A DNA stretch of 64,000 bases from Candidatus Giovannonibacteria bacterium (lineage in GTDB: Bacteria > Patescibacteriota > Minisyncoccia > UBA11713 > 2-01-FULL-45-33). This document shows positions 54,382-63,566 of this stretch, one piece after another. The stretch spans positions 515,065-579,064 of the forward strand of contig CP066687.1 of assembly GCA_016432405.1 (NCBI GenBank), written 5' to 3'. The first letter of the stretch is position 1. Each line of letters opens with the position of its first letter. Below the pieces are notes generated by a model. That model saw nothing but the letters and a program-made list of their open reading frames with translations. It ran no database searches and was not told where the DNA came from. A program made the position numbers and the translations under genes.

Positions 54382-54882
54382 GGCTGGGGATTTGGATTCT
54401 CCGCTCATAAGCCGAGTTCTGTTTAAATAGCCATCTGTCTGGTCCCGCGATTGCTCTGCGGGATCTAGCGTCCGACTACCGAGGTTAACTCGACGTCGGA
54501 CTTGCACCGGGCCCCGACGTAAAGCCGGGGTCCCGACTTCGCTATCAAAAATTTTAATAGTGCGTCGGGACAAGTGTTTTTCACCGCGCGCTGTCACCAA
54601 CGCGCGCTGTGAGCTTTTACCTCACCTCTTTTCACCCTTGCGCTATCAACGCTTCCGGCTTTAGACCGAAAATGATGACGTCCGCGGTATTGTCTCTGTG
54701 ACACTCTCTCGTCCCGCCGTTGGCGGGAGGTGGCCGTTAGCCACTGCCTCTGCCAAAGTTGCCCGAAGCGCAGCGAGGCCGCAACTTTGAGCATCCCGAC
54801 TTTACGTCGGGATTACCTTAGCGGTGCTCGGACTTTCCTCCCTTCCCAAAGCTTGCGCATTGTGGCGGGCGGCTATCCGGCG
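54382..54882 (-). ncRNA. rnpB: RNase P RNA, bacterial type A (M1 RNA)
   Basis: Minus strand contains GGAGGAAAGTCCGAGC (P4 5' strand/CR-I), AGGGTGAAAAGAGGTGAGGTAAAAGCTCAC (CR-II/III), ACAGAACTCGGCTTA (CR-V, P4 3' strand), and P1 pairing GATTCTTCGC/GCGGAGAATC. Consensus promoter upstream and terminator downstream. Length about 500 nt suggests lineage-specific insertions. Confidence 0.8.
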
Positions 54883-54886
54883 AAGA

Positions 54887-54914
54887 ATCTTCCTACATTA
54901 TAGCAGCGTCCCAA
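54887..54914 (-). promoter_or_regulatory. rnpB promoter
   Basis: Minus strand reads TTGCAA (54909-54914), 16 nt, TATAAT (54887-54892). The transcription start coincides with the P1 5' strand. Confidence 0.65.
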
Positions 54915-59061: not shown

Positions 59062-59183
59062 AACTCAAAAATAACTCACAAAGCCTAGCCAGTCAACATT
59101 AGTTTTCATCTACTAATTTTAGCATAAAACCCTGCCCCGTTAATTTTCTCGCCTCTCCGCCGAACACCGCAATTTCACTTTTT

Positions 59184-59999
59184 TTATTTCTTTTTACTCT
59201 TTTTTAATCTTTTTTCTATTTTCCTTAATCTTGCTTCAAGTTTTTTAAAATTTTCGTTAATTAATATTCTAGAATCTCTTATTAAATCTGTTGCTTTAAT
59301 TTCTTTAATCATACTTTCTTTAGACAAATTAGCTATATTTTTCATTGTAGTTTCAAGATTATTAATAATTTTTTCTCCAAGTATAGTAACTTTTTTAGAA
59401 TCATTATGCAGTTCATTAAATTTCCGATACTTATGAAGGGCTTTATGAGTTATGTCGTTGCGCATAGAATTAAAGTTTTCTAAATCGCTCACCAACATGC
59501 TGTCATTTAAAAAAACGCTTAAAAAATGTATAAGTTTGCCCAGTGTCTCTTTTTGTAATTTTTTACTGGAAAGTTTTATCCAAATCTTTGTTTCAAATAA
59601 ATGGCTGTTGGAAATACAATCGAGATTTATGATGGACTGTATAAATATCAATAAAGATATTACGTTATATGAGATTAAATTTTCTTGTAATACCAGTCTT
59701 GCATAATTCGATTTCTCCTCTCTGAGATACTTTAGAAAATCTTCACGGAATCTCTCCCTCTCATCTAGATCACTAACAATCTTTTTAACTAAATGTTCTC
59801 TTTCTTTTTGCCAAAATAGGCCGTTTTCTATTTTGTTGCCATCCTCATCTTTGATAAGGCCGCCTAGTTTATCATAATGAGCCAAAATCTTTTCTGGCGT
59901 AGCATTTTCTCCAGCATCCTTTTTAGCCCTATCGTATTTATCGCTATTATTATTGAGCGTGTATTCTCGTCCCCGAACTTTGATTTTTATTTCTTGCAT
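59184..59999 (-). CDS. Abi_2-family (AbiD/AbiF-like) abortive-infection protein with HEPN R-x4-H motif
   Basis: From the ATG at 59999 with SD AGGAG (the track start 60023 lacks an SD). AT-rich. LRNDITH fits the R-x4-6-H HEPN motif conserved in AbiD/AbiF. Driven by promoter module copy B. Confidence 0.6.
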   Translation of the reverse strand: MQEIKIKVRGREYTLNNNSDKYDRAKKDAGENATPEKILAHYDKLGGLIKDEDGNKIENGLFWQKEREHLVKKIVSDLDERERFREDFLKYLREEKSNYARLVLQENLISYNVISLLIFIQSIINLDCISNSHLFETKIWIKLSSKKLQKETLGKLIHFLSVFLNDSMLVSDLENFNSMRNDITHKALHKYRKFNELHNDSKKVTILGEKIINNLETTMKNIANLSKESMIKEIKATDLIRDSRILINENFKKLEARLRKIEKRLKKSKKK

Positions 60000-60025
60000 A
60001 ATGTCTCCTAGTTTTTTGAACAAAC

Positions 60026-60086
60026 TTATTAATCCCCTAAATCTTAGCGGATTTTGGGTTTTTATTCAAGCAGTTTTCGGTTTTTT
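60026..60086 (-). promoter_or_regulatory. Conserved promoter module, copy B
   Basis: Minus strand reads TTGAAT (60064-60069), 17 nt, TAAGAT (60041-60046), then TTAGGGGATTAATAA. Paralogous to 31657-31717. Confidence 0.55.
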
Positions 60087-60284
60087 GCGCGGCACGCCGC
60101 AATGCTCGGCAATAATTGGAGCGTCAATCCAAAAAATGATTTCTAAATAAGCATCCGCCATCTTAGAGGCGATTTGTTCCATTGTGCCGTCGTCAACCTC
60201 CGAAACGTCAAAACCTATCCCTTCTAAATCTTCCCGGCAAATAGATGTAATAGGAAACTGTTTAAATTTTTTATTATTGGCCAT
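60066..60284 (-). CDS. Hypothetical small protein (island gene)
   Basis: 72 aa. Its 3' end overlaps promoter module B. Confidence 0.4.
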   Translation of the reverse strand: MANNKKFKQFPITSICREDLEGIGFDVSEVDDGTMEQIASKMADAYLEIIFWIDAPIIAEHCGVPRKKPKTA

Positions 60285-60298
60285 ACTAATAAAATTTA

Positions 60299-60508
60299 TT
60301 ATTTAAGCGCATTTTTGATTTTAGCGAGGATTTCCGTACCACATCGGAAGCAAAAATTTTTAAGTTTTAGGCCTATTACATTAACCTTTTCGACGCGTTC
60401 TGGATAATATATTTCACCTTTTCGAATTTCACCGCCGCATGTATTACAAAAATGAGAAACCCTTGCTTTTGTTTCCTTTAGAATTTTTAAATTATTATAT
60501 TTGCTCAC
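60299..60508 (-). CDS. Small zinc-ribbon protein
   Basis: 69 aa, CNTCGG...CFRCG (two CxxC pairs). Confidence 0.45.
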   Translation of the reverse strand: MSKYNNLKILKETKARVSHFCNTCGGEIRKGEIYYPERVEKVNVIGLKLKNFCFRCGTEILAKIKNALK

Positions 60509-60517
60509 GCTATCAAA

Positions 60518-60751
60518 CTAGCTTAAGTATTTTCGCGGATCATTTTTATATGTCCACTCATTCTGGATTTCGCCATTCAAGCCGTGAATTTTCACTTGGC
60601 TTGGTTGCATAGACTTAGCCAATGCTACAGCCGTTCTAACAGCGTCTGCTTTTTTAGGAGTAGAGATGACGGGGAAGCTGACGCCAGCTTGCTTCACGAG
60701 CCAGTTTTCAGAAGTATTGTTGTGCACAACATGTAAAACTTTTCTTGCCAT
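60518..60751 (-). CDS. DUF2188-family small protein
   Basis: 77 aa. VHVVHN...W.VKQ.G...P.S.TKKADAV.TA.ALAK...I.HG.NG.I..E.TY..DP pattern typical of DUF2188. Confidence 0.55.
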   Translation of the reverse strand: MARKVLHVVHNNTSENWLVKQAGVSFPVISTPKKADAVRTAVALAKSMQPSQVKIHGLNGEIQNEWTYKNDPRKYLS

Positions 60752-60868
60752 GGTATTAGGATTTTAGATTAATAATCTCGACCATTTTCAATTATAATAC
60801 CAAACTACCGAAAATAAACCGAAAGTTATCCACAGGCCAATAGCAACCGCTTGGTATAAAATAAATAT

Positions 60869-62392
60869 ATGCTCACCCCTCGTCAAAAACAGGTACTGGA
60901 TTTTGTAAGCTCCTACACCAAAAAGCGGGGTTTTGCGCCCTCCATTAAAGAAATGGGGCAAAGGATTGGCTTGGCCATATCTACAATTCATCAGCATTTA
61001 ACGGCGCTGCAAAATAAGGGTTATCTGCAACGACAAAAAAATCAAAAAAGAGGCATTGAAGTATCTTCATCAGAGAAGCTAGTAAAAATTCCTTTATGGG
61101 GAACAATAGCCGCAGGCGAACCAATCCATGTATTTGAAGCACATAAAGAAGCCATTGCTGTCCCAAAAAGTAAAATCCCCTCTTCATCGGAGGTCTACGC
61201 CCTCCGCGTTGTGGGCAACAGCATGATTGATGAAAATATAAACGACGGAGACGTCGTTTTGGTGCGCCAGCAAGAAACTGCCGAGAATGGAGAAAGGGTA
61301 GTGGCTCTCATTGATAATCACGAAGCAACCTTAAAGAAATTTTATAAAGAGCGCGGACATATTCGCTTACAACCGGCAAACAAAAACATGGAGCCGCTTA
61401 TTTTCAGAAATGGGAGGGATGTTTCAATACAAGGAATTGTACTTGATGTTATCCGTGAAGAAACACCAATATCTATTGTCTTTCCAGAAATTAAGACGGA
61501 AATCAAACAATATAAAAAACTTCCTATTAACAAAATAATTTTAGGAGATGCGATGCAAGAATTAAAGAAACTTCCTGATGAAAGTTGTGATGTTATCGTT
61601 ATTGATCCCCCATACAATATCGGGAAAGATTTTGGAAATAATCTTGATAAGCGAGAACTGAGCGAATATGTTGCGTGGTGTAAAAAATGGATAAATGAAT
61701 GCGTTAGAGCAATGAAACCAACTGGAACAATGTTTATTTATGGTTTTAGCGAAATTTTAGCCCATCTTTCTGTTGAAATTCCTATAAATAAACGCTGGCT
61801 TATTTGGCATTATACAAACAAAAACGTTGCCTCACTCAATTTTTGGCAGAGAAGTCATGAAGCAATTATCTGTGCATGGAAAAACAAACCAATTTTCAAT
61901 AGAGACGAAGTTAGAGAGCCCTACACGGAGGGGTTTTTGAATGGGGCCGCAGGAAAAATAAGAAAGGGCACATTAGGGAGATTTAGTGGGAGCGGTGTAG
62001 AAACTGTTTACAAAGCCCATGAGGGCGGCGCGTTGCCGCGAGATGTCATCAAAGCTCCTGCCCTGGCTGGAGGAGCCGGAATGGTAGAAAGATGGTTTTT
62101 GTGCAAAACGTGCGATGATGTTTTTGAACCGCGACAATTGAAAAAACACAATGGACACAAAATAATTAAACATCCCACGCAAAAGCCCCTTGAATTATCA
62201 AAAAAATTGATCGCATCAGCTATGCCTAAAAAGGATGGCGTTGTCTTAGTGCCATTTGTCGGTACTGGTTCGGAGTGCGTAGCGGCAAAAGAGTTAGGCC
62301 AATCGTATATTGGATTTGAAATCAATCAAGATTATATAAAAATTGCTGAAAAATTTTTGAGCTCCACTAACTTTGCGCCAAAATTATTTTAA
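60869..62392 (+). CDS. LexA-like repressor (wHTH plus S24 peptidase) translationally fused to a beta-class N6-adenine (DPPY) DNA methyltransferase
   Basis: Continuous 507 aa ORF. Residues 1 to about 200 form a complete LexA: LTPRQKQVLDF wHTH, Ala-Gly cleavage site IAAGEPI, catalytic Ser in VVGNSM and Lys in ATLKKF. Residues about 225-507 form an MTase with motif IV DPPY then motif I FVGTGS (beta-class order). Confidence 0.8.
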   Translation: MLTPRQKQVLDFVSSYTKKRGFAPSIKEMGQRIGLAISTIHQHLTALQNKGYLQRQKNQKRGIEVSSSEKLVKIPLWGTIAAGEPIHVFEAHKEAIAVPKSKIPSSSEVYALRVVGNSMIDENINDGDVVLVRQQETAENGERVVALIDNHEATLKKFYKERGHIRLQPANKNMEPLIFRNGRDVSIQGIVLDVIREETPISIVFPEIKTEIKQYKKLPINKIILGDAMQELKKLPDESCDVIVIDPPYNIGKDFGNNLDKRELSEYVAWCKKWINECVRAMKPTGTMFIYGFSEILAHLSVEIPINKRWLIWHYTNKNVASLNFWQRSHEAIICAWKNKPIFNRDEVREPYTEGFLNGAAGKIRKGTLGRFSGSGVETVYKAHEGGALPRDVIKAPALAGGAGMVERWFLCKTCDDVFEPRQLKKHNGHKIIKHPTQKPLELSKKLIASAMPKKDGVVLVPFVGTGSECVAAKELGQSYIGFEINQDYIKIAEKFLSSTNFAPKLF

Positions 62393-62408
62393 ATAATTTT
62401 ATATAAAA

Positions 62409-63077
62409 TCAGCTATCGCTTTTTAAATAATTAATAAGTCCTTTCCCCAATTCTTTAATAGATATAGAAATATTAATTAATTTTTCATCCTTAGAAAAAT
62501 AATTGAGTGGGATTAAATACCATAATTGATCAGACATTTTAAATACTATTTTAGCAGCAAGGCCCAAACCTTGTTTTAACTCATAGCCTGTTTTTGTTTT
62601 TTTCCAGTTGTTTTTGTTAAGCATTTTAGTTGGAGCCAGTTTGATGGCTGGGGTTTTAATAACATTATAGATTATGCGTTGATGCTCTTTATCTAATTCT
62701 CGCGCGCATATTAAATAAAAGTCGAAATTATTGTGTTGAGCTTTTATAAAAGCTAGTTTCTTTTCTAATGAGCTAAATGTGGTTAAACGATAAGACGATA
62801 GCGTAAGAAAATTATTTTTTATAACGCTACCCTTGGCAGAAATTTTTAGAATAGAACCATTAATTTTTGCCTTAATATCAACACTTTTTTCATGCGATTG
62901 AGAATTCCATACAACTTTATCGTCTCCATAGAGAAAGACAAGGGCAGCCCATATAAGTTCTTCCCAACTTGTATCTTTAATTGGAAGTGTTGTTGTACTA
63001 GATTTAAATTTTATTAGTTTCTCAATAGTACTTGAGAATTTTGTCTCATTAAAACTCATATAATCAAATTCTCCCAC
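62409..63077 (-). CDS. Putative type II restriction endonuclease (partner of the methyltransferase)
   Basis: 222 aa AT-rich ORF convergent with, and 16 nt from, the MTase gene. Possible D...D-x-K core (GDD...VDIK). Alternative ATG start at 63059 with SD GGGAG. Function inferred from context only. Confidence 0.45.
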   Translation of the reverse strand: MGEFDYMSFNETKFSSTIEKLIKFKSSTTTLPIKDTSWEELIWAALVFLYGDDKVVWNSQSHEKSVDIKAKINGSILKISAKGSVIKNNFLTLSSYRLTTFSSLEKKLAFIKAQHNNFDFYLICARELDKEHQRIIYNVIKTPAIKLAPTKMLNKNNWKKTKTGYELKQGLGLAAKIVFKMSDQLWYLIPLNYFSKDEKLINISISIKELGKGLINYLKSDS

Positions 63078-63116
63078 AAAATCATTTATTTATCAAACCA
63101 AACCCCGCCTCCCTAT

Positions 63117-63144
63117 CTATTCTCTTATTCTCACGAATTAGCCG
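63117..63144. promoter_or_regulatory. Operator-like repeat upstream of the putative REase gene
   Basis: CTATTCTCTTATTCTCACGAATTAGCCG. 27 of 28 identical to 63444-63471 upstream of the ArsR-family gene. Confidence 0.5.
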
Positions 63145-63153
63145 GAGTATAAT

Positions 63154-63426
63154 TTATAAAATAGACAAAATATATTTTGCCGCGTGCCGAAGCGCGCCGA
63201 GGCGGTAAAAAACCTGAAGGCTTCTTTGGTCACGTTCCAAAATATCAGCTGCAGCGAGCACCGACAAGTGCCGGGAAGTTGATTTAAACGACAAACGAAT
63301 TTCTTCGGCAATGTCCCCAACCGGCGCCTCCTTAACCTTTTTTAAATACCGCAAAATTTGCAGCCGTCTTTTATTGGCCAGCGCTTTTAACGCCTTTTCC
63401 AGCTCTTTTTCATTCATAGTAAACAT
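63154..63426 (-). CDS. ArsR/SmtB-family transcriptional regulator (candidate controller of the R-M system)
   Basis: 90 aa. HTH VGDIAEEIRLSFKSTSRHLSVLAAADIL, typical ArsR length. Confidence 0.75.
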   Translation of the reverse strand: MFTMNEKELEKALKALANKRRLQILRYLKKVKEAPVGDIAEEIRLSFKSTSRHLSVLAAADILERDQRSLQVFYRLGALRHAAKYILSIL

Positions 63427-63443
63427 ACTAGCATATCCCCCAA

Positions 63444-63488
63444 CTATTCTCTAATTCTCACGAATTAGCCGATAGAGAATAGAGAATT
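63444..63488. promoter_or_regulatory. Operator-like repeat plus inverted partner upstream of the ArsR-family gene
   Basis: CTATTCTCTAATTCTCACGAATTAGCCG followed by ATAGAGAATAGAGAAT (inverted partner of ATTCTCTAATTCTC). Confidence 0.5.
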
Positions 63489-63566
63489 AATACTTTTACC
63501 AAAAAATTAAAAATGCCCTGCGGACTGTTTCGCAAGGCATAGAGAGGCGATTTCTCCGGGAAACCG

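Follow-up and report, generated by a model that had tools for sequence, protein, structure and literature searches.

The known safeguards of restriction-modification (R-M) systems against self-restriction are mainly controller (C) proteins, methylase-borne helix-turn-helix (HTH) domains, and antisense RNAs. Among the methylases that carry a regulatory HTH at the N terminus are M.SsoII, M.Ecl18kI, M.EcoRII, and M.MspI. Here, we analyzed an R-M locus in a 64,000-nucleotide stretch of a Candidatus Giovannonibacteria genome (contig CP066687.1, positions 515,065 to 579,064 of the forward strand; hereafter, the window), in which the gene for a small ArsR-family regulator precedes the gene for a candidate restriction endonuclease (REase) and the DNA methylase is fused to a complete LexA protein. 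An earlier description made from the DNA letters (the sequence-only reading) had suggested that ArsR acts like a C protein and times REase expression. We favor, with moderate confidence, a different reading, namely, an island with an R-M module whose restriction gene sits in a slot behind the operator of a resident host ArsR repressor.

In Type II R-M systems with C proteins, such as PvuII, AhdI, Esp1396I, and Kpn2I, a small regulator gene directly precedes the restriction gene and is transcribed in the same direction, and operator copies are found before both (PMC2275141, PMC3488213, PMC6237814). The locus in the window shares this layout, and its methylase unit is convergent, as in AhdI. The regulator itself differs: it is an ArsR/SmtB winged-helix protein and not of the Xre type, it is encoded by a widespread host gene whose boxes occur in non-R-M contexts, and it is not borne by the module. 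ArsR is probably a plain repressor, whereas C proteins act as activators and then as repressors. ArsR might conceivably also act as a roadblock, as C.Kpn2I does.

The sequence-only reading had placed a 28-bp motif, CTATTCTCT(T/A)ATTCTCACGAATTAGCCG, ahead of both arsR and the REase gene, and this was confirmed. The two copies (63117-63144 and 63444-63471) were alike at 27 of 28 bases; with up to 3 mismatches allowed, the window held no further copy, and none arose in 100 dinucleotide-preserving shuffles. With a repeat finder, the repeat grew to 34 nt at 91% identity (63111-63144 and 63438-63471). On the minus strand, along which the genes are read, the upstream copy stopped 19 nt short of the arsR ATG (63426), while the downstream copy began 15 nt past the arsR stop codon and 57 nt ahead of the restriction-gene ATG (63059). 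Thus, arsR is exactly bracketed by the repeat. The upstream copy comprised the conserved ATTC-GTGA-GAAT-ta-GAGAAT and two more inverted ATTCTC hexamers, which together form an extended imperfect palindrome. The inverted partner that had been described at arsR was therefore roughly right, the arrangement being ATTCTC-t-ATTCTC ... ATTC-GTGA-GAAT-ta-GAGAAT. Both copies had in common a GAGAAT hexamer followed by a G-rich Shine-Dalgarno-like run. Searches of the window for other ArsR boxes or LexA-type repeats gave only weak matches at chance level.

To place these boxes in context, they were compared in 10 ArsR lineages, the window and nine further ones that were fetched (loci other than the window carry L numbers). 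A consensus box, tTCtCTAATTCGcGCGAATaaGnGAATAG (ATTC-N4-GAAT-N4-GAAT), was present before and after arsR in all 10. The pre-start box was located 6 to 57 nt from the start of the ArsR homologue in nine lineages; in L022, the nearest full box was 176 nt upstream. The post-stop box was found at -1 to 32 nt from the arsR stop codon (251 nt in one lineage) in all lineages. This flanking was independent of the gene downstream, which encoded the REase in the window and L021, a PDDEXK_1 nuclease together with a PIF1 helicase in L074, a DinB-type polymerase in L076, a Class I tRNA synthetase in L024 (where dnaK-dnaJ precede arsR), a serine hydrolase (Ser_hydrolase) in L023 and L077, and SufBD in L079. 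The gene that follows arsR in L078, in the uvrB-uvrA interval, lies on the opposite strand. Since the same boxes surround arsR whatever gene follows, the restriction gene sits in the slot of a host regulator. The box-arsR-box layout belongs to arsR and not to the R-M system.

The stringent form ATTC-N4-GAAT-N4-GAAT was confined to less than about 700 nt from arsR genes in 477 kb of fetched loci and did not occur at all in about 56 nuclease loci without arsR. In L022 and L023, additional boxes were located directly ahead of neighboring genes, which indicates operator-like behavior. Some copies were full 32-bp palindromes, e.g., CTATTCTCTTATTCGTACGAATAAGAGAATAG in L076. In L075, the third half-site, TAGAAT, stood 6 nt ahead of the ATG, so that it probably doubles as a -10 element. 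Given this linkage of motif and gene, the box is very probably the operator of this ArsR subfamily, to which the protein is predicted to bind.

The HTH assignment of the 90-amino-acid (aa) ArsR protein held in the profile searches, in which both PF01022 (HTH_5; E value of 8e-9, score of 35.7 versus a cutoff of 22) and NCBIfam NF033788 (63.5 versus 55) passed their cutoffs; the matches were of the HTH_5/ArsR type, and none of the HTH_3/Xre type was obtained. The closest solved structures were HlyU, NolR, and CzrA. The sequence contains two histidines and no cysteine and therefore lacks a classical metal site; neither an alpha3 Cys motif nor an alpha5 His/Asp/Glu site for the sensing of metals or metalloids was recognized in it. 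Like the non-metal-sensing ArsR/SmtB proteins HlyU, NolR, BigR, PagR, and SdpR, it has an HTH_5 winged-helix fold and falls within the range of about 90 to 110 aa. Proteins of this type bind as dimers to short inverted repeats and are frequently autoregulated, and the same is predicted here. In contrast to them, it has no cysteine and no recognizable sensing site, its box holds three or four ATTC/GAAT half-sites at 4-nt spacing, and the operator-gene-operator arrangement is kept across the candidate phyla radiation (CPR). A total of 420 homologues at 61 to 85% identity were found, mostly in CPR bacteria (Liptonbacteria, Zambryskibacteria, Sungbacteria, Pacebacteria, and others). Apart from the window, its syntenic relative L021 was the only locus in which arsR adjoined the nuclease gene; about 50 other nuclease loci lacked it. 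ArsR is thus a conserved host regulator that does not travel with the R-M module.

L021 derives from another sample and displayed the order RNR, a 156-aa gene, arsR, restriction gene, LexA-methylase gene, and LTD protein gene. Its DNA was 79% identical to the window in the flanks and 71% identical in the arsR-restriction-methylase block, and both ArsR boxes were kept.

The core of the island is a Type II R-M module that consists of a nuclease and a convergent LexA-methylase. The open reading frame (ORF) at 62409-63077 had been called a putative REase, and this assignment stood, as the encoded protein has a nuclease fold and is partnered by a methylase; the better start of the ORF is the ATG at 63059 (216 aa), as judged by gene calls and homologue lengths. 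The island proteins were searched against Pfam, PADLOC, NCBIfam, and PHROGs, and the nuclease, the 72-aa ORF, and the HEPN protein described below showed no match in any of the four. PDB sequence searches with the nuclease and the HEPN protein returned nothing useful. The nuclease has a ThaI-like fold but is only 10% identical to R.ThaI (PDB 3ndh), from which it also differs in having no match in any profile library. All of its 65 homologues were unannotated and mostly from Patescibacteria; E33/E34, H56, D61, and S74-A-K76 were invariant or nearly so among them. As expected of a Type II system, the candidate endonuclease is encoded by a gene of its own and combines a nuclease fold with conserved catalytic residues; it is the founder of an uncharacterized PD-(D/E)XK family.

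Nuclease-bearing loci were drawn from GTDB genomes, JGI metagenomes, and exact-match look-ups. A DNA methylase gene adjoined the nuclease gene in every locus with enough flanking sequence. Homologues at 56 to 71% identity were paired convergently with a LexA-beta-methylase fusion, while the partner of homologues at 40 to 63% identity was a TaqI-like gamma-class methylase (Eco57I plus TaqI_C), usually upstream and overlapping. The association of one nuclease family with two unrelated methylase families strongly argues that the nuclease is a Type II restriction enzyme. Fragments 70 to 73% identical to the beta-methylase C terminus were located just 3' of nuclease genes that now have a gamma-class partner (L048, 2185-2367; L050, 4673-4828; protein P0056), which suggests that the methylase partner was swapped. 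No other 4-nt palindromes of the window were avoided nearly as strongly as TCGA (observed/expected ratio of 0.25) and GATC (0.34). This avoidance was considered as a pointer to the recognition site and rejected: it was common to many nuclease loci, but several lacked it and some controls displayed it, so that no site could be assigned. A 9-codon upstream ORF (ATGATTTTGTGGGAGAATTTGATTATATGA) at 63056-63085 on the minus strand overlapped the restriction-gene start codon in an ATGA, and in L021 a 6-codon upstream ORF stopped 4 nt ahead of that start. These short frames could be chance occurrences in AT-rich DNA, or they could serve translational coupling or attenuation.

The LexA-methylase fusion had also been recognized from the letters, and LexA_DNA_bind, Peptidase_S24, and N6_N4_Mtase were indeed found in one 507-aa ORF, which converges on the restriction gene with a gap of 16 bp. 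Residues 1 to 197 represent a full and apparently cleavable LexA with the HTH, the Ala82-Gly83 cleavage site, Ser118, and Lys156 (TIGR00498, 199 bits versus an equivalog cutoff of 111; PF01726, 1.2e-18; PF00717, 6.5e-31); in the alignment, IAAGEP, GNSM, and TLKK matched A84-G85, S119, and K156 of Escherichia coli LexA. Residues from about 205 to 507 constitute a beta-class N6/N4 DNA methylase (PF01555, 1.2e-38; PADLOC MTase_II, 1.4e-50) with DPPY at 246 and FVGTGS at 463, in the order typical of the beta class. The fusion was kept in nine further fetched loci (L007, L012, L014, L021, L028, L033, L038, L040, and L042), in which the methylase part was 78 to 84% and the LexA part 52 to 64% identical. 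An exhaustive phmmer search returned dozens of proteins of 430 to 890 aa that start with a full LexA (P0220-P0368), and all 10 of those tested consisted of LexA plus S24 fused to a DNA methylase. The fused methylases were of the beta (N6_N4), gamma (N6_Mtase/Eco57I/TaqI_C), and Dam-like (D12) classes, and the hosts were Parcubacteria, Nealsonbacteria, Patescibacteria, and Omnitrophota; the database labels read merely "LexA" or "methyltransferase." Literature searches found no description of LexA-methylase fusions and none of ArsR-type R-M controllers, and a 2025 review of R-M biology mentions neither LexA nor ArsR. The architecture is widespread, recurs across three or four methylase classes, and is apparently undescribed.

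In 8 of the 10 LexA-methylase loci, an element TGTGGATAA and a direct repeat TTTCGG-N5-TTTCGG (motif CTGTGGATAACTTTCGG-N5-TTTCGG) abutted the upstream side of a TATAAT-like hexamer. In L038, the repeat was GTTC-N7-GTTC; L040 kept only the TGTGGATAA part, and L014 a trace. The candidate operator in the window lies about 35 nt upstream of the start of the fusion gene, in an orientation opposite to that at most other loci, and has no second copy in the window. Judged by this conservation, the most economical reading of the element would be autorepression by the LexA domain that is relieved by RecA-stimulated cleavage. The LexA domain would bind the direct repeat at its own promoter and repress the methylase gene; DNA damage would stimulate LexA self-cleavage through RecA, lift the repression, and raise methylase output. 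A canonical DnaA-box consensus, TTATCCACA, was located beside the direct repeat at 60826-60834 and also occurred in L007, L012, L021, L028, L033, L038, L040, and L042; DnaA might also act on methylase expression, or the match might be coincidental.

The fusion resembles the HTH methylases named above in carrying its own DNA-binding domain, which most likely mediates promoter autorepression and thereby an early burst of methylase followed by a steady state. It differs from them in carrying an entire LexA, including the S24 autoprotease, the cleavage site, and the Ser/Lys dyad, which makes a release by RecA and DNA damage possible, and in its recurrence with beta-, gamma-, and alpha-class methylases.

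At the arsR end of the module, the favored reading would work as follows. The 28- to 34-bp repeat would be the cognate operator, probably including a promoter -10 element, of a small cysteine-free ArsR-family repressor that is kept throughout the Parcubacteria-type CPR bacteria. ArsR would repress its own gene at the first box and, at the second box, would limit transcription entering or starting toward the downstream gene. No terminator was predicted between arsR and the restriction gene; together with the duplicated GAGAAT hexamer, this indicates that transcription to the restriction gene starts at the box or passes through it. The window lineage and L021 carry an R-M module with the restriction gene in the ArsR slot, where the host repressor would keep REase expression low. 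Because ArsR is resident and autoregulated, the restriction gene would be repressed from the moment the module arrives, which a module-borne repressor could not achieve.

Several points weigh against this reading. Past the box and ahead of the restriction-gene ATG, there is a promoter-like match, TTGATA-17-GAGAAT; if the restriction gene had its own promoter there, the box would fall at about -45 to -75, a nonclassical position for a repressor. The same nuclease-methylase module occurs without ArsR in many genomes, and ArsR control is therefore dispensable. CPR promoters are poorly defined, and the generic promoter/terminator scan performed at chance level and was used as a pointer only. On the methylase side, the LexA box was assigned by its conservation among promoters that are related and may have been inherited together. 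Finally, the post-stop box may serve arsR alone, for example, through DNA looping or as a transcription roadblock.

This last point leads to the alternative that survived best, according to which the post-stop box serves the arsR unit only (by looping, as a roadblock, or as a terminator substitute), the restriction gene is transcribed from its own constitutive leaderless-type promoter, and its placement is an accident of insertion. The promoter-like sequence, in its longer form TTGATA-17-TGnGAGAAT, fits such an arrangement. Restriction genes at ArsR-free loci have a TATAxT hexamer 6 to 8 nt ahead of the ATG and no box, and the post-stop copy is independent of the downstream gene, as seen in L078 with its oppositely oriented neighbor. 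However, boxes that directly precede neighboring genes in L022/L023 and L077 point to control beyond arsR, read-through from arsR would cross the box where no terminator is predicted, and the downstream copy repeats the hexamer and the Shine-Dalgarno-like part of the arsR promoter copy. The promoter-like match and the occurrence of the module elsewhere without ArsR leave this alternative with substantial weight, although on balance we regard it as doubtful.

That ArsR is a dedicated controller, i.e., a functional C protein of the R-M system that times the REase after entry into a new cell, appears unlikely. The topology resembles that of C-R operons, with a small co-directional DNA-binding gene upstream of the restriction gene, a palindromic site before the regulator, a related site before the restriction gene, and a convergent methylase, and L021 keeps it. 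The absence of ArsR from the roughly 50 other nuclease loci, its homologues (61 to 85% identity) with both boxes in unrelated contexts, and its HTH_5/ArsR rather than Xre/HTH_3 domain argue against such a role, and a repressor encoded on the incoming element would not yet be present at arrival and would be unable to delay restriction. Judged by the distribution of ArsR, this explanation seems largely refuted, and the C-protein-like timing of the REase put forward in the sequence-only reading gave way to a resident host repressor. It is very improbable that, instead of being operators, the two copies belong to a small mobile arsR cassette as its terminal direct repeats or recombination sites: direct repeats do tightly bracket one gene of about 330 bp, ArsR homologues stand at nonsyntenic places in different CPR lineages, and the two copies in one genome often have the same central spacer, but the box is dyad-symmetric internally, as is typical where winged-helix dimers bind, keeps close to the arsR start at a fixed distance, and has a -10-like hexamer inside it, extra boxes precede other genes (L022/L023, L076, and L077), no recombinase is associated, and the box sequence is conserved across lineages with unrelated flanks.

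The module is housed in a variable island on the chromosome of a Candidatus Giovannonibacteria-like CPR genome (Table 1). The AT richness of this island was borne out, the island genes having 29 to 43% GC compared to 48% for the whole window and 51 to 55% for the flanking genes, and all ORFs that had been named there were present. Contigs identical to the window were found in public data (Logan SRR12113426 and others). Neither a tRNA gene nor an integrase was found at the island borders. Searches of viral contigs yielded no true relatives of the nuclease or the HEPN protein, and a phage origin is therefore not indicated.

Table 1. Positions of the island features in the window
Feature	Position	Strand	Basis
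ArsR box, upstream copy (predicted arsR promoter/operator)	63438..63492	-	Repeat search, lineage comparison
Small ArsR/SmtB-family winged-helix regulator, 90 aa	63154..63426	-	Pfam HTH_5, NCBIfam
ArsR box, downstream copy	63111..63144	-	Repeat search; post-stop equivalent in 10/10 ArsR lineages
Type II restriction endonuclease candidate, 216 aa	62409..63059	-	PD-(D/E)XK fold, methylase linkage
LexA-methylase fusion, 507 aa	60869..62392	+	Pfam, TIGR00498, LexA alignment
Candidate LexA-domain operator, CCGAAA-N5-CCGAAA beside TTATCCACA	60807..60835	+	Conserved across fusion loci
DUF2188 protein, 77 aa	60518..60751	-	PF09954, 1.5e-12
Probable zinc-ribbon protein, 69 aa, CxxC-N29-CxxC	60299..60508	-	Sub-threshold profile matches
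72-aa ORF	60066..60284	-	Called as gene on public contig; no family match
HEPN-fold protein, 271 aa	59184..59999	-	Fold and R-x4-H motif

The HEPN protein, for which the ATG at 59999 is the better start by gene calls and homologue lengths, consists of a helical C-terminal domain and, ahead of it, about 65 aa that form a strongly conserved N-terminal domain. It had been described as an AbiD/F-like (Abi_2) protein. The HEPN fold and the R-x4-H motif stood; the Abi_2 label was dropped, as no match was obtained at E values of up to 0.1-1 in the four profile libraries. In the motif R180-N-x-I-T-H185, R180 and H185 were invariant in 13 aligned full-length sequences, and both the R-x4-6-H spacing among homologues and the helical fold agree with the HEPN superfamily. 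Twelve full-length homologues were found. Many shorter proteins matched only the first 65 or so residues (64 to 76% identity) and had other, often membrane-spanning C termini. An identical protein is recorded from a Candidatus Giovannonibacteria metagenome-assembled genome. Similarly to HEPN toxins and Abi proteins (AbiD/AbiF Abi_2, the AbiA C-terminal HEPN, Csm6, and HEPN-MNT), the protein has a four-helix HEPN-like fold with R-x4-H at the start of a long helix and is encoded in a defense-type island; unlike them, it has no Abi_2 match and carries the unique N-terminal domain, and an MNT-type partner was not evident. This domain (59805-59999; P0078-P0099), with the pattern REYTLNNNSDKYDRAKKDAG...ILAHYDKLAGLIKDENG.K.ENG.FW, is extremely conserved and matched no known family. 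It was found in the context of HEPN, of transmembrane segments, and of a repeated G-rich N-terminal extension.

The DUF2188 assignment was confirmed (PF09954, 47.9 bits versus a cutoff of 22); the protein also matched the PADLOC candidate PDC-S16 (1.7e-13) and phrog_3220. Its gene is the first of a small co-directional cassette that is divergent from the methylase gene. The zinc-ribbon call fared less clearly: the CxxC pairs are visible by eye, whereas the profile matches (DZR, 0.0025; phrog_26293, 7e-5) were sub-threshold, and the ORF was missed by the public gene caller. The intergenic region between the DUF2188 gene and the divergent LexA-methylase gene holds AGATTA-A-TAATCT (60766-60778), a perfect palindrome of the form 6-1-6 that lies 15 nt before the DUF2188 start.

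As to whether relatives lack the island, L021 kept the arsR-restriction-methylase block but was missing the DUF2188, zinc-ribbon, and 72-aa genes, which represent an insertion beside a conserved junction. This junction of 41 bp (window, 60030-60070; L021, 5263-5303) was 90% conserved, and the inserted cassette spans 60066-60790. In place of the HEPN gene, L021 had an unrelated 191-aa gene, whose product was compared with the HEPN protein and rejected as a homologue; its C-terminal tail (LKLSPEIYGLGINLKSVW) recurred in proteins with the N-terminal domain of the HEPN protein. Such gene turnover is expected of a defense island. The DUF2188, zinc-ribbon, 72-aa, and HEPN genes form a separate, swappable cassette next to the module, which probably encodes a defense of the toxin or abortive-infection type.

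In other genomes, defense and nuclease genes were frequent beside the nuclease-methylase module and beside arsR. They encoded AAA_15/AAA_21 ATPases, SLFN_AlbA_2, Tsp45I, Mrr, DpnI, and GIY-YIG proteins (for instance, at L007 8424-12657, L022 1-1626, and L075 923-2215), and these neighborhoods are probably defense islands too. Elsewhere in the window, a match to bacterial RNase P RNA (class A) was found at 54392-54888 on the minus strand; its 497 nt compare to a model of 367 positions, which implies sizeable insertions.

The locus touches on the classic question of how restriction enzymes are prevented from killing their own host. It suggests two safeguards in addition to those known, namely, a host repressor over the restriction gene and a methylase fused to LexA, and the LexA fusion could couple methylation capacity to DNA damage. 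Since the fusion recurs in CPR bacteria and Omnitrophota, and the methylases involved belong to at least three classes, this mechanism is probably general. In a broader and more tentative proposal, which we consider possible at best, LexA-methylase fusions would represent a general wiring of R-M systems to the DNA damage signal. The methylase would be autorepressed until DNA breaks, self-inflicted or triggered by phage, cause LexA cleavage through RecA, upon which it would restore protection, and divergent defense genes may be de-repressed as well; in the window, the endonuclease would in addition be gated by ArsR, and the box-gene-box unit would serve as a docking slot for acquired DNA metabolism or defense genes. 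The analysis newly defines a restriction endonuclease family, the predicted cognate box of a small ArsR that is kept in many CPR bacteria, whose regulation is almost unknown, and a HEPN protein whose conserved N-terminal module is novel.

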